Positions 17,863 to 28,400 are shown, counted from the first letter of the stretch. The stretch is DNA of 64,000 bases from Escherichia coli (GCF_016903815.1 NZ_CP069973.1), one strand, 5' to 3'. The notes: generated from the sequence alone by a model not told the origin. Translations and numbers: made by a program.

Positions 17863-18459
17863 TTTATTGTAGAGGGTAAATCATGGCCAAATAAAGGCAC
17901 TGTAAGAGTAAAACTTATAGTGCCTTTATATACAAGCCAGATTATAACGCCATGCAATGAAACGCCCCCATGCATACGTAGATTAACTATCTCTTACCAT
18001 TTTACATATCCGAAAGAATATGTTTTAACAGAAAGGTAAAACATGAGCGATAATAAAAAAGAGCACTTCCACAATGTAATAATAAGATGGGTTATTATTT
18101 TCGCCACTATTGAATACATATATTTATTTATAAAGTTTCTCTAAAGTCTTAATACCCATCCCATCAAAAAACAATGCGGGGTTGTTAAAATAACAACATA
18201 ACACTGTTTTCATGAGAATAGTAAAGCGTTTATTCAAAACCGTTTATAGCAACCCCATAAACCCAACATAGCAATTGAGTTTAAAAAGGAGATTTCATTG
18301 TCCCCTATCAATTAAACTTCATGTTTTTTAGTTTGTTTATAAAACAACATCATATCTCCTATAAAATACTCAGCAGTATTAAACCACCTTATCTTTAACC
18401 AAACTATTTATTCCGCAAGCCCACACTTATGGATATTTACCGTTGGTAATGACTCCAAC

Positions 18460-18963
18460 TTACTGATAGTGTTTTATGTTCAGATAATGCCCGATGACCT
18501 TGTCATGCAGCTCCACCGATTTTGAGAACGACAGTGACTTCCGTCCCAGCCTTGCCAGATGTTGTCTCAGATTCAGATTATGTCGCTCAATGCGCTGAGT
18601 GTAACGCTTGCTGATAACGTGCAGCTTTCCCTTCAGGCGTGATTCATACAGCGGCCAGCCATCCGTCATCCATACCACGACCTCAAAGGCCGACAGCAGG
18701 CTCAGAAGACGCTCCAGTGTGGCCAGAGTGCGTTCACCGAAGACGTGCGCCACAACCGTCCTCCGTATCCTGTCATACGCGTAAAACAGCCAGCGCTGAC
18801 GTGATTTAGCACCGACGTAGCCCCACTGTTCGTCCATTTCAGCGCAGACAATCACATCACTGCCCGGTTGTATGCGCGAGGTTACCGACTGCGGCCTGAG
18901 TTTTTTAAGTGACGTAAAACCGTGTTGAGGCCAACGCCCATAATGCGTGCACTGGCGCGACAT
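18460..18963 (-). CDS. insB: IS1 InsB reading frame (expressed as InsAB by frameshift)
   Basis: ORF-track 167-aa frame overlapping insA inside IS1. Confidence 0.8.
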
Positions 18964-19157
18964 CCGACGCCATTCATGGCCATATCAATGATTTTCTGGT
19001 GCGTACCGGGCTGAGAGGCGGTGTAAGTGAACTGTAGTTGCCATGTTTTACGGCAATGAGAGCAGAGATAGCGCTGATGTCCGGCAGTGCTTTTGCCGTT
19101 ACGCACCACGCCTTCAGTAGCGGAGCAGGAAGGACATCTGATGGAAATGGAAGCCAC
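18882..19157 (-). CDS. insA: IS1 InsA (91 aa)
   Basis: ORF-track protein [40 protein letters not shown]... inside the IS1 copy. Confidence 0.85.
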
Positions 19158-19212
19158 GCAAGCACCTTAAAATCACCATCATACACTAAATCAGTAAGTT
19201 GGCAGCATTACC

Positions 19213-19301
19213 AAATCTGGAGCTACCACGCGTTGTTCTGGCTGGCGATAGGGATGTTGGGTATTGCGATGATTTGCCTGCTGTTTATTAAAGATATTTA
19301 G
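19213..19301 (+). pseudogene. 3' remnant of an MFS sugar-efflux gene (setC-like), truncated by IS1
   Basis: Immediately after the IS1 end an in-frame stretch ...IWSYHALFWLAIGMLGIAMICLLFIKDI-stop remains with no start; in K-12 setC lies between selC and yicL (recalled). Confidence 0.5.
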
Positions 19302-19411
19302 CTCACCAGTCTGGGCTAAGAAAAATCGGCGTGGCGCAAACAGAGCCATCCTCGCCATTTTTGCTATCATGCCTGCATACATAAACGACAAAACAGTATG
19401 CAGAGGGAAAA

Positions 19412-24500: not shown

Positions 24501-24728
24501 ATGACCAATAATATTAGCAATATAAACAATACAGCTCATAATAAGAATCTCGATAAAACAACATTCGATGAACAACCTGCTTATGAAACAAGAGTATCAC
24601 AAGCTAAAAAAATACTGCAAAGTTTTGCGCCAAATGATATTAAAGTTGATACAAATACTAAATTTATTAGTCTGATAGAGTCTGTCCGTGCTCTCTCTCC
24701 TGAATTACAATGTAAGGTACTAGGGTGA
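24501..24728 (+). pseudogene. 5' fragment of the next translocon gene (SipC/EipC-like), truncated by IS1
   Basis: RBS AAGAGGA then ORF MTNNISNINN... that ends in a stop codon lying inside the IS1 terminal repeat (IS1 starts at 24724). Confidence 0.45.
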
Positions 24729-24778
24729 TGCTGCCAACTTACTGATTTAGTGTATGATGGTGTTTTTGAGGTGCTCCA

Positions 24779-25054
24779 GTGGCTTCTGTTTCTATCAGCT
24801 GTCCCTCCTGTTCAGCTACTGACGGGGTGGTGCGTAACGGCAAAAGCACCGCCGGACATCAGCGCTATCTCTGCTCTCACTGCCGTAAAACATGGCAACT
24901 GCAGTTCACTTACACCGCTTCTCAACCCGGTACGCACCAGAAAATCATTGATATGGCCATGAATGGCGTTGGATGCCGGGCAACCGCCCGCATTATGGGC
25001 GTTGGCCTCAACACGATTTTCCGCCATTTAAAAAACTCAGGCCGCAGTCGGTAA
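24779..25054 (+). CDS. insA: IS1 InsA
   Basis: ORF-track protein [22 protein letters not shown]... inside the IS1 copy. Confidence 0.85.
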
Positions 25055-25476
25055 CCTCGCGCATACAGCCGGGCAGTGACGTCATCGTCTGCGCGGAAAT
25101 GGACGAACAGTGGGGATACGTCGGGGCTAAATCGCGCCAGCGCTGGCTGTTTTACGCGTATGACAGGCTCCGGAAGACGGTTGTTGCGCACGTATTCGGT
25201 GAACGCACTCTGGCCACACTGGAGCGTCTTCTAAGCCTGCTGTCGGCCTTTGAGGTCGTGGTATGGATGACGGATGGCTGGCCGCTGTATGAATCCCGCC
25301 TGAAGGGAAAGCTGCACGTAATCAGCAAGCGTTACACTCAGCGAATTGAGCGGCATAACCTGAATCTGAGACAACATCTGGCAAGGCTGGGACGGAAGTC
25401 ACTGTCGTTCTCAAAATCGGTGGAGCTGCATGACAAGGTCATCGGGCATTATCTGAACATAAAACACTATCAGTAA
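24973..25476 (+). CDS. insB: IS1 InsB reading frame
   Basis: ORF-track 167-aa frame inside the IS1 copy. Confidence 0.8.
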
Positions 25477-25486
25477 GTTGGAGTCA

Positions 25487-28400
25487 TTACCCGTTTTCCT
25501 CATTAAGCTGAACAACACCATCAGTAATAAAGTTACCCTGGGCATCTTTAAGAACAACGGTCACCGTTATGCTATCCCCAGCGATATATATCGTTTTGTC
25601 CGCGACAATCGTTGATTGAGTTTTTGCCGCCGCACCTGGTTGTATTCCGTATAACGAGGACTTAATCTCCGTTGCCCATGTTTTTAATTTCAGACTGGCA
25701 ACTAGATTTTCCTCGGCAACCCATGCTGTCCAGACAATGGTATATTCACCATTATTCTGCTCGACCCACCGCATAGCATCGTGAGTTGCGCCGCCTACCG
25801 CGAAACTATCAATATAAGACTCGATGACTTCTGATGTCAGCCCTAAAGCAGGGTTACCAAACTCATCCCGCAACGTTATTGTGACGGTTAATGGCTCCCC
25901 GGCGATATATGCCGATTTATCTGTCCTGATAGCAGAATTTGCCTGCACCGGAGCACCGCTGTGGATGGAATAACTCTCTGATTGTTTACTGCTGCCCCAT
26001 TCAGACAACTTCAGCGTCGCGTGGTGAGAGTCTCCCGCCATTTGCGCCGACCATGTAGCAGTATAAACACCGGCGGTTTCAGACCATCCTCCTGAACGTA
26101 CGGCTCCTTCTACTGTTACGTTATCACCAGACAATAAGGACTCGCCCCCTTCAACCAGGTTACCGTGCGCGTCTTTCAGCGTCACGGCGACGGTTATAGT
26201 GTCACCAGCGGTGTAGGCGTTTTTATCCGTAGCGATAGTTGATGTGGCTTGCGCCGGAGAACCGGACTGGATGTCATAGCGATCTGACGTTACGCCATCA
26301 CTCCACGTCTGCAATTGCAGGTTGGCGTGCTGATTGGTACTGGCAATCGTCGCCATTCGGGTTGTGGTATACACGCCACCTGATTCAACCCAGCTTCCCA
26401 TTTCTGACGGGTCAGTGCCAGCCACCGTCAGCACACCATCAGCGGCTAACTGTGAAGCTGCACCGGTTACCAGATTATCGAACGCATCCCGGAGCGTTAC
26501 CGTGATGGTGATTGTCTCTCCAACCGTATAGTTCGACTTATTTGTTTCAACGATTGAAGTGAGTTGCGATGCATCACCAGGTACAAAGGTGACGTTCTGG
26601 CTCTGGCTGCTGTTGTTGATGCTGGCGGTGACTGTACTGGTGCCCGCCGTCTGGCTGGTGACACTGATCTCCACCGTGCCATCCGGCTTTGTGGTCATCG
26701 TCGGAGCAACCGTTGCGCTGTTGCCCGCCAACACGCTGACCGTCTGCCCGGCAAGCGCATTACCGAACGCATCGGTGACTCTCGCCCGCAGCATATTCGC
26801 CATTGCACCGTCTGCCACTGAGTCGTCCTTAATGACCACCAGGTCCGCGATCTTCGCTGTCCTGACATCGGCGATAAACGTCACGTTCCGGCTCTGACTG
26901 CTGCTGTTGATGCTGGCAGTGACTGCACTGATTCCCGCCGTCTGGCTGGTTACAGATATCTCCACCGTGCCGTCCGGCTTGGTGGTCACCGTCGGAGTGA
27001 CCGTTGCGCTGTTGCCTGCCAACACGCTGACCGTCTGTCCGGCAAGCGTATTACCGTTAGCATCGGTGACCTTCACCTGCAGCGTATTCGCCGTCGAACC
27101 GTCTGCCTCTGAACCATCCTTAATGACCACCAGATCAGCGATCTTCGCCGTGCTGACATCGGCGATAAATGTCACGTTCCGGCTCAGACTGCTGTTGTTG
27201 ATGCTGGCTGTGACCGCACTGATCCCCGCCGTCTGGCTGGTAACAGAGATCTCCACCGTACCGTCCGGCTGCGTGGTGACCGTCGGGGCGACCGTTGCGC
27301 CGTTGTCCGCCAACACGCTGACCGTCTGCCCGGCAAGCGCATTACCGAATGCATCGGTCACCCTCGCCCGCAGCGTGTTCGCCGTCGCACCGTCCGCCTC
27401 TGAACCGTCCTTAATAACCACCAGATCCGCGATCTGCGCCGTCCTGACATCGGCGACAAACGTCACGTTCCGGCTCTGGCTGCTGCTGTTGATGCTGGCA
27501 GTGACTGCACTGACTCCCGCCGTCTGGCTGGTGACTGAGATCTCCACCGTACCGTCCGGCTCTGTGATGACCGTCGGGGCAGTCGTTGCGCCGTTGTCCG
27601 CCAACACGCTGACCGTCTGCCCGGCTAGCGTGTTCCCGAACGCATCGGTCACCCTCACCCGCAGCGTGTTCGCCGTCGAACCGTCCGCCTCTGAACCATC
27701 CTTAATGACCACCAGATCAGCGATCTTCGCCGTGCTGACATCGGCGATAAATGTCACGTTCTGACTCTGACTACTGCTGTTGATGGTTGCAGTGACTGCA
27801 CTGACTCCCGCCGTCTGGCTGGTGACACTGATTTCCACCGTGCCGTCCGGCTCGGTGATCACCGTTGGGGCAGTCGTTACGCCGTTGTCCGCCAACACGC
27901 TGACCGTCTGGCCGCCAAGCGCATTACCGAACGCATCCGTCACCCTCACCCGCAGCATGTTCGCCGTCGAACCGTCTGCCACTGAGCCGTCCTTAATGAC
28001 CACCAGATCAGCGATCTGCGCCGTCCTGACATCCGCGACAAACATCACGTTCCGGCTCAGGCTGCTGTTGTTGATGGTTGCAGTGACTGTACTGATCCCC
28101 GCCGTCTGGCTGGTGGCAGAGATCTCCACCGTGCCGTCCGGCTGCGTGGTGACCGTCGGAGCAGTCGTGGCACCGTTGCCTGCCATCACGCTGACCGTCT
28201 GTCCGGCAAGCGCATTACCGAACGCATCGGTGACCCTCGCCCGCAGCATATTCGCCATTGCACCGTCTGCCACTGAGTCGTCCTTAATGACCACCAGATC
28301 CGCGATCTTCGCCGTCCTGACATCGGCGATAAACATCACGTTCTGGCTCGCGGTGCTGTTGTTGATGGTTGCAGTGACTGCACTGACTCCCGCCGTCTGG

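Follow-up and report, generated by a model that had tools for sequence, protein, structure and literature searches.

Two inverted IS1 elements at probable deletion junctions of different age near selC in Escherichia coli AR_0015

We analysed a 64-kb stretch of the E. coli AR_0015 chromosome, in the following called the window. The tRNA-Sec gene selC (9403..9497, + strand, located with ARAGORN) is the attachment site of an island whose annotated and conserved left module (9797..18444, +) ends abruptly at a first IS1 copy, IS1#1. The module comprises an integrase (9797-10981, beside selC), a TPR protein, a LacI regulator, an MFS transporter, a GH31 hydrolase and a ykgR-like small gene. On the other side of IS1#1 lies a 3' remnant of setC (19213..19301, +), which by BLAST matches the final 89 of the 1,185 nt of the K-12 gene. 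Window position 19213 corresponds to position 5050 of the K-12 stretch used for comparison (L007), inside setC (3954-5138); the gene has lost about 1,096 nt from its 5' side, together with upstream backbone. This right junction of IS1#1 with setC is common to 121 genomes. The backbone genes yicL (+), nlpA (-) and yicS (+) follow at 19412..21660, in native order and orientation according to annotation and collinearity with K-12.

What survives of the eip (selC-B) locus lies at 21962..24488 (+), where annotation and Pfam place eicA, a small ORF and eipB. EicA is a class II type III secretion chaperone of the SycD/LcrH type and EipB a SipB/YopB-type translocator, the Pfam matches on this segment being TPR_3, T3SSipB and SseC. 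It is followed by a 5' fragment of eipC (24501..24728, +) which, translated and measured against the intact 376-aa gene of strain 7/2, retains 74 native codons of 376 and then gains Gly and a stop from the end of a second IS1 copy, IS1#2. No Pfam family was found for EipC, and its name therefore rests on synteny and the literature. The 9-bp sequence directly before IS1#2, AGGTACTAG at 24715..24723 (+), is the left copy, still in place, of the target-site duplication that arose on insertion of this element. Beyond IS1#2 is the inverse-autotransporter adhesin gene air/eaeX, annotated at 25487..35851 (-) and missing its last 1,061 nt. It measures 10,365 nt and 3,454 aa here vs 11,421 nt and 3,806 aa when intact, a loss of about 353 codons that includes an Invasin_D4 domain and the C-terminal tip (by Pfam on the deleted C-terminus), and its reading frame stops inside the IS1 terminus, with the junction translation ...NEENG*. 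The full eip/selC-B set (eicA, eipB, eipC, eipD, eilA and air/eaeX) is complete in sister genomes; the window keeps just eicA, eipB, the 74 eipC codons and the 3'-truncated air. The truncated genes that an earlier note on this DNA had seen abutting the IS1 copies are thus real.

IS1#1 (18445-19212, -) and IS1#2 (24724-25491, +, in eipC) lie where that note had placed them, in inverted orientation and bracketing yicL-nlpA-yicS and the translocator genes. Each is complete at 768 bp, and the pair, with 93.4% identity over 768 nt per arm, forms the sole long inverted repeat within the window; the 51 mismatches between the copies are confined to IS1 positions 1-636. Both have the features of the IS1 family: a length of about 768 bp, intact terminal inverted repeats (~23 bp, imperfect, GGTRATG...CCAACTTACTGAT) and open insA/insB' frames joined by the A6C -1 frameshift motif AAAAAAC at position 307. 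RefSeq labels both as non-pseudo IS1 transposases with 'programmed frameshift'. IS1#1 is IS1F-like and differs from the K-12 IS1F at 5/768 positions. IS1#2 is an IS1A/IS1F mosaic variant, IS1A-like at nearly all diagnostic sites in the first ~470 nt and made of alternating IS1A-type and IS1F-type blocks past position ~487. The copies also differ in their distribution (about 205 genomes for IS1#1 vs 16, plus Survcare321, for IS1#2), in line with the earlier view that they are not recent copies of each other.

Insertion of IS1 makes 8- or 9-bp duplications (PMC12428005). IS1#1 is flanked by TTTACCGTT on the left and AAATCTGGA on the right, IS1#2 by AGGTACTAG and CGTTTTCCT. Moving each IS1 boundary from -3 to +3 and allowing duplication lengths of 7-10 bp, we found no target-site duplication at either copy in the window. 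The earlier note had likewise reported none, and the 9-bp repeats that a correction of the boundaries might have brought out did not appear. The usual explanation of absent duplications is adjacent deletion or recombination between IS copies (PMC11708052). Around IS1#2 the missing duplication is secondary, because nine sister genomes carry an identical IS1#2 between two copies of AGGTACTAG. The lack of a duplication in the window is no argument against the identity of the elements as IS1.

For IS1#2, the successive states are found in near-identical genomes. The site is empty, with 100% flank identity, in strain 7/2 and most of 86 collinear genomes. The nine genomes with the perfect 9-bp copies, WCHEC96200 among them, have eipC-eipD-eilA-air otherwise intact. 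Alignment with genomes carrying the intact locus, as the earlier note had suggested, defines the block lost from the window as 5,322 bp (11993-17314 of the comparison stretch L002), containing the second copy of the duplication, the remainder of eipC, the genes eipD and eilA, and the terminal 1,061 nt of air. Exactly this junction occurs in six independently sequenced genomes (AR_0015, 222, 103, 2779, 5283 and 98192), all of which retain the left junction and an IS1 sequence that is 100% identical, the loss being solely rightward. Two further deletions start from the same element: strain 98210 has the same IS1#2 and left junction with a right flank in uhpC, a deletion of 24,085 bp, and Survcare321, in which both flanks are changed, lacks 5,269 bp to the right of the element and 14,112 bp to its left. 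IS1#2 was found at this site only in the 16 genomes and Survcare321. A progenitor with its duplication, one fixed junction and different extents of loss from one IS1 are thus all on record. Given this series of empty, duplicated and deleted states and the two further deletions, adjacent deletion at IS1#2 is, as far as genome sequences go, directly demonstrated by comparison within a clone.

IS1#1 is an older anchor, and the two elements record unrelated events of different age. The last 582 bp of the island before IS1#1 are present in 330 genomes; 122 of these run uninterrupted into ssb, as in BL21, and the remainder break exactly at 18444/18445. The left junction of IS1#1 falls on the same base in about 205 genomes of very different lineages, such as EC958 (ST131), CFT073 and the clone of the window. 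At this junction the element is 100% identical in EC958, A14 and CRE10, and near-identical in GPEC1446, NCTC10444 and CFT073 (one mismatch, or 98.7% identity in CFT073), with differing right flanks throughout. We counted at least six kinds of right flank, none with a duplication: setC, a BREX module, nlpA, an antiporter/decarboxylase, an IS5 fragment with sugar genes, and a DUF2254 fragment. A fixed junction with variable far endpoints, as adjacent deletions leave, is therefore seen at IS1#1 as well. The other right flanks gave no cross-matches in the EC958 and BL21 island stretches compared, where a common ancestral cargo, as nested deletion from one large island would imply, was looked for. 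Elsewhere on the AR_0015 chromosome the BL21-type continuation does not occur. A pattern search allowing up to 3 mismatches found no second selC 3' end in the window, which has the integrase and lacks this direct repeat; attR has therefore been deleted, and the selC island is an immobilised remnant. We also built a simple-insertion query from the left flank, IS1#1, TTTACCGTT and the BL21 continuation (cut-off at least 80% coverage). None of 5,426 genomes showed IS1#1 with TTTACCGTT on both sides and the BL21-type continuation, so that the original insertion state is one that we infer. IS1#1 is a deletion scar, and the deletion itself is certain because the window lacks the 5' end of setC, attR and the island's right part.

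Overall, the best explanation is that both IS1 copies, complete and from their sequences potentially active, each sit at a deletion junction; we give this reading a probability of about 0.85. IS1#2 entered eipC in a recent ancestor with a normal 9-bp duplication, AGGTACTAG, and DNA to the right of the same element later disappeared without any change at the left junction. The mechanism was probably intramolecular replicative transposition into a nearby site in cis, in which case the intervening DNA would have been released as an origin-less circle and lost, leaving one IS1 without a duplication. Such transposition is known to give deletions or inversions with loss of the flanking repeats (PMC7986276, whose reference list includes Turlan & Chandler 1995 on IS1 replicative deletions). 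At IS1#1, everything between the IRL end and setC codon ~366 was lost in the lineage of the window; this took the island's right-hand cargo and attR, the backbone ahead of setC and about 1,096 nt of the gene itself. Most likely this happened by the same kind of one-ended deletion, and less likely by recombination with a second IS1. On this reading the deletions would depend on transposase. The earlier proposal of adjacent deletions thus holds for IS1#2 through the genome series; for IS1#1 the loss is certain and the exact mechanism is the part that we infer.

Recombination deserves most weight at IS1#1, where the product of RecA-mediated recombination with a transient second IS1 and that of a transposase-mediated deletion are not separable by sequence comparison. 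Two direct IS1F-like copies, one at the island boundary and one in setC, could have recombined homologously and deleted the DNA between them with no adjacent deletion at all. We consider this improbable, though it has points in its favour. An O121 genome (and VL7S7) carries a 768/768-identical IS1, likewise oriented, that interrupts setC with an 8-bp duplication, GAAATCTG, and leaves the gene otherwise intact; its junction is just 1 bp from that of IS1#1 in the window, as a history with two IS1 copies, or a hot spot, would have it. The IS1#1 variant recurs at the locus in several arrangements, and recombination between IS copies is a recognised source of missing duplications (PMC11708052). However, recombination would have kept the junction exact, and the 1-bp offset means that the O121 junction is not the same one. 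A built query for a simple IS1 insertion in setC, analogous to that for the island, recovered only the O121-type insertion; neither an exact AAATCTGGA-flanked insertion nor two IS1F copies flanking the region occurs in any genome. Moreover, the at least six right flanks at one left anchor would each call for a separate second IS1. A one-ended deletion at IS1#1 is thus the reading we prefer. The O121-type setC insertion was also considered as the progenitor of the window's junction and rejected on account of its 1-bp offset and its 8-bp duplication. The two setC junctions 1 bp apart, in the lineage of the window and in O121, may mean that IS1 inserts here at a strong target hot spot or by a targeted reaction; the candidate hot-spot sequence is GAAATCTGG. 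More speculatively, and with the odds well against it, the IS1F-like element may be a long-lived and recurrently used joint for removing or exchanging right-hand island cargo, beyond a passive scar.

The same alternative is considerably weaker for IS1#2. The 5,322-bp loss could have come about by recombination with a transient second IS1 in air instead of intramolecular transposition; the end product would be indistinguishable by sequence, and the AR_0015 chromosome offers about 11 IS1-like places. Against this, an IS1 at the air endpoint with another left flank was found in no genome, and none of the 5,426 genomes has a second IS1 at any of the IS1#2 deletion endpoints. Three right endpoints (5,269, 5,322 and 24,085 bp) depart from one IS1 that is 100% identical in every state, and each would need an extra direct-orientation insertion of the identical mosaic variant, which makes this route quite unlikely. 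The reciprocal junction of IS1 with AGGTACTAG and eipC was not found elsewhere in any deletion-state genome.

Inverted IS1 copies around 5.5 kb superficially resemble an IS1-based compound transposon, and the pair could also be taken for the ends of an IS1-mediated inversion. Both ideas are refuted. The outer flanks mismatch (TTTACCGTT vs CGTTTTCCT), and under the boundary shifts given above we found neither a composite-type match of outer flanks across the pair nor an inversion-type match (each left flank compared with the reverse-complemented left flank of the other copy, and right likewise). The bracketed yicL-nlpA-yicS are backbone genes native to the locus, in their own order and orientation, sister genomes carry the same segment with IS1#1 alone, and the two IS1 are different variants. 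Comparison with K-12 and with sister genomes without IS1#2 shows the segment to be collinear, as expected from the earlier note, which had seen no inversion. That the DNA only seems to be missing, through collapse of the assembly across IS1 repeats, has next to no likelihood despite the frequent misassembly of IS elements, for the IS1#2 deletion junction is identical in six complete genomes from several different strain series and the IS1#1/setC junction recurs in 121 genomes.

The value of these observations is mainly practical; the IS1 mechanism is textbook and nothing here adds new biology about IS1. With attR gone, excision of the selC island is presumably no longer possible. The subclone has also lost the activator eilA, the tip protein eipD, most of the translocator eipC and, from the Air/EaeX adhesin, its distal tip, so that its eip locus is very probably non-functional, as gene content and published EilA data on other strains suggest. 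Ordinary genome decay has very probably disabled a small type III secretion accessory locus, and natural intermediates document how, in one clinical clone, a single IS1 insertion gave rise to a succession of one-sided deletions, 5 to 24 kb long. Presence or absence of eaeX has been used for typing in a study of ST405 (PMC11934165). Typing of this kind would call the present strains positive, and virulence inference could be misled.

Adjacent deletions by IS1 are said to have been described classically in the E. coli gal region and by Turlan and Chandler in 1995. Our cases resemble them in that the IS1 is intact, one original junction survives with one copy of the duplication, the DNA adjoining the other end is gone and no duplication remains around the element, and also in that the deletions are nested with one end anchored (5.3 kb and 24 kb at IS1#2, at least six right flanks at IS1#1). 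They differ in being natural events from clinical genomes and not laboratory-selected; we saw no mechanistic difference. In the literature searched, we found no account of an IS1 in eipC followed by a 5,322-bp deletion that takes eipD, eilA and the tip of air. Mutational attrition of ETT2 and of the eip/selC-B locus associated with it is on record for E. coli (Ren et al., 2004; Sheikh et al., 2006; both through the summary in PMC7058095), and that locus has the same genes (eicA, eipB, eipC, eipD, eilA, air/eaeX) as here and the same position, downstream of selC and following setC-yicL-nlpA. Like ETT2, which is widely reported as degraded, the eip locus of the window has decayed. The selC-A island of the window is a sugar-utilisation module, whereas that of strain 042 is phage-like. 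The gene called eipC in this work is named eipX in PMC7058095.

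The 10.5 kb spanning the two IS1 elements align as one piece, with 100% identity, to the AR_0015 chromosome (NZ_CP024862.1), position 2,348,607 of the AR_0015 record corresponding to window position 1. From left to right, yicI, yicJ and selC (9403-9497) are followed by the selC island (integrase, TPR protein, LacI regulator, MFS transporter, GH31 hydrolase and a ykgR-like small gene), the left IS1 (18445-19212, reverse) and a setC remnant with yicL, nlpA and yicS. Then come an eicA-like chaperone gene, a small ORF, an eipB-like translocator gene, an eipC fragment, the right IS1 (24724-25491, forward), truncated air and nepI. 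This order agrees with the published layout, in which the selC-A island at selC is followed by the setC-yicL-nlpA backbone and the eip/selC-B locus (PMC7058095).

The window's sole long inverted repeat is formed by the two elements (768 nt per arm, 93% complementary), and the earlier note's description of an inverted, slightly differing pair was accurate. All 51 mismatches fall within IS1 positions 1-636, and in both copies the terminal repeats are complete, the insA and insB' frames open and the A6C frameshift motif present. The left IS1 matches K-12 IS1F at all but 5 of its 768 positions and the right one is an IS1A/IS1F mosaic; they are unrelated insertions. Diagnostic sites in the mosaic are IS1A-type to about position 471 and then alternate between IS1F-type and IS1A-type blocks, its final 132 nt being identical to the left IS1. 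The flanks are TTTACCGTT (left) and AAATCTGGA (right) for the left IS1, and AGGTACTAG (left) and CGTTTTCCT (right) for the right IS1. The earlier note saw no target-site duplication at either element but allowed that slightly corrected boundaries might reveal one; with boundaries shifted by up to 3 bases and lengths of 7-10 bp, we found no direct repeat at either IS1 and no inversion-type or outer-flank match. The truncated genes it placed next to the elements are indeed there: setC retains its last 89 of 1,185 nt, eipC 74 of 376 codons, and the air product measures 3,454 aa versus 3,806 when intact.

The history of the right IS1 can be read from sister genomes, 86 of which are collinear with its region, most at 100.0% identity; there are five states. 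Strain 7/2 and most of the 86 have an empty site with eipC (376 aa), eipD, eilA and full-length air intact. Nine genomes (WCHEC96200, WCHEC000837, WCHEC4533, NMBU-W10C18, PEC1013, EC190329, TOE51, Ec-U14-1 and Ec-U4-19) carry an identical IS1 with AGGTACTAG on both sides, the left junction as in the window and intact downstream genes. In AR_0015, 222, 103, 2779, 5283 and 98192 the left junction and the IS1 are unchanged and 5,322 bp are gone on the right, the exact deletion junction being common to all six. The lost block (11993-17314 of L002, a comparison stretch that retains it) contains the second duplication copy, the 3' part of eipC, eipD, eilA and 1,061 nt of air. Strain 98210 (L021 5201-5968) keeps this same IS1 and the left junction, its right flank lies in uhpC (window 44255) and 24,085 bp are lost. 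Survcare321 (L014 6001-6768), with the same IS1 variant, lacks 5,269 bp of right-hand and 14,112 bp of left-hand sequence, the latter as far as the island integrase at window 10611. The 98210 deletion removes air, nepI, adeQ, adeD and uhpT and reaches into uhpC; what remains in Survcare321 is selC, IS1 and truncated forms of the integrase and air.

An unchanged IS, a fixed junction with a duplication copy (here at 24715-24723) and differing far endpoints together define IS-mediated adjacent deletion, for which intramolecular replicative transposition in cis is the accepted mechanism. The right IS1 would have transposed in this way and deleted the DNA beside it; the series of sister-genome states directly supports the adjacent deletion that the earlier note proposed here. 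No deletion-state genome holds the reciprocal junction of IS1 with AGGTACTAG-eipC elsewhere. Lost duplications have been ascribed to adjacent deletion or to recombination between IS copies (PMC11708052). Recombination with a transient additional IS1 is formally conceivable, but each of the three endpoints would then require its own insertion of the identical mosaic variant, none of which has been observed. As a set of nested deletions from nature, the series neatly illustrates a known process: this is textbook IS1 biology, of low novelty, at a locus whose attrition was already known.

The lost part of air encodes the Invasin_D4 domain and the C-terminal tip, and the truncated frame now terminates (...NEENG, stop) within the IS1 terminus. 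Of the lost proteins, EipD belongs to the T3SS tip complex, and EilA is a regulator that has OmpR-type DNA binding and TPR repeats. EilA is reported to activate genes of the selC locus, and in strain 042 mutation of eilA or eaeX reduces adherence (PMC7058095). From these data and the loss of the air tip, EipD and EilA, we infer that the remaining eicA-eipB and truncated air are probably functionally dead. The deletion series calls for caution in virulence-gene typing by presence or absence. Within air, window 26585-32413 holds twenty tandem 291-bp repeats, mutually 82-90% identical, which encode adhesin Big-domain repeats; in published work their number is reported to differ between lineages.

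The left IS1 is an older scar. The final 582 bp of the island ahead of it occur in 330 genomes, of which 122 (BL21, E. coli C and others) continue without break into an ssb gene; in the remainder the match stops exactly at the first base of the IS1. The element at this anchor is identical to ours (768/768) in EC958, A14 and CRE10, has one mismatch in GPEC1446 and NCTC10444, and is frameshifted and 98.7% identical in CFT073. What lies to its right varies, with at least six sequences known. In the window type (121 genomes) it is the 3' end of setC; EC958 has a BREX module, GPEC1446 the middle of nlpA, CFT073 an antiporter/decarboxylase pair and CRE10 a DUF2254 fragment, and A14 and NCTC10444 have an IS5 fragment with sugar genes. 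None of these arrangements shows a duplication around the IS1. The selC 3' end occurs just once in the window, and attR, the repeat at the far island boundary, is therefore gone; the BL21-type continuation is found nowhere else in AR_0015, and the segment between the two IS1 is collinear with K-12. The common left anchor, varying right flanks, attR loss and K-12 collinearity show that the left junction is ancestral and the right one derived; the window lineage has lost about 1,096 nt of setC together with attR and the island cargo on the right. In EC958 (ST131; L011, NZ_CP138232.1 1180000-1229000) the anchor IS1F-like element borders the same conserved selC-island module on one side and variable cargo on the other, namely a complete BREX-1 system, a group II intron and an Afa/Dr adhesin operon.

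We favour a one-ended adjacent deletion at the left IS1, with a probability of roughly 0.6-0.7; what the earlier note had proposed is supported here in substance. Recombination between two IS1 copies is an unlikely source of this deletion. A simple insertion with duplicated TTTACCGTT occurs in no genome. O121 strain 201805972 (L009 12199-12966) and VL7S7 carry a 768/768-identical IS1, in the same orientation, in an otherwise intact setC, with an 8-bp duplication, GAAATCTG; IS1 duplications measure 8 or 9 bp (PMC12428005). Its junction is 1 bp off that in the window, and it is therefore not the progenitor junction; the near-coincidence suggests either a target hot spot or a more complex two-IS1 history. 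A composite transposon or IS1-mediated inversion can be dismissed, as the flanks mismatch in every configuration, the cargo consists of native backbone genes that keep their native orientation (the earlier note likewise saw no inversion signature) and sister genomes with the identical segment carry just one IS1, and so can an assembly artefact, the junctions recurring in 6 (right IS1) and 121 (left IS1) independent complete genomes.

Elsewhere at selC, NCTC9112 (L010 12002-12769) has a further independent IS1-bounded deletion: the same IS1F-like variant as the left IS1, without duplication, directly connects setC, at 303 nt from its end, with a point that lies about 176 bp beyond selC, and the whole island is absent. 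Upstream of yicI, window 1-5105 holds a PTS-fructose-like, aldolase and BglG-antiterminator cluster, also present in NCTC9112; in the O121 strain yicH adjoins yicI directly, and the cluster is a variable accessory sugar module. Two hypothetical genes (487 and 160 aa) without functional annotation lie between uhpA and ilvN (47304-49529). RelE/ParE toxin and HTH antitoxin genes occupy 37471-38131 between nepI and yicN, an interval with about 0.8 kb inserted relative to K-12, where it spans only about 40 bp.
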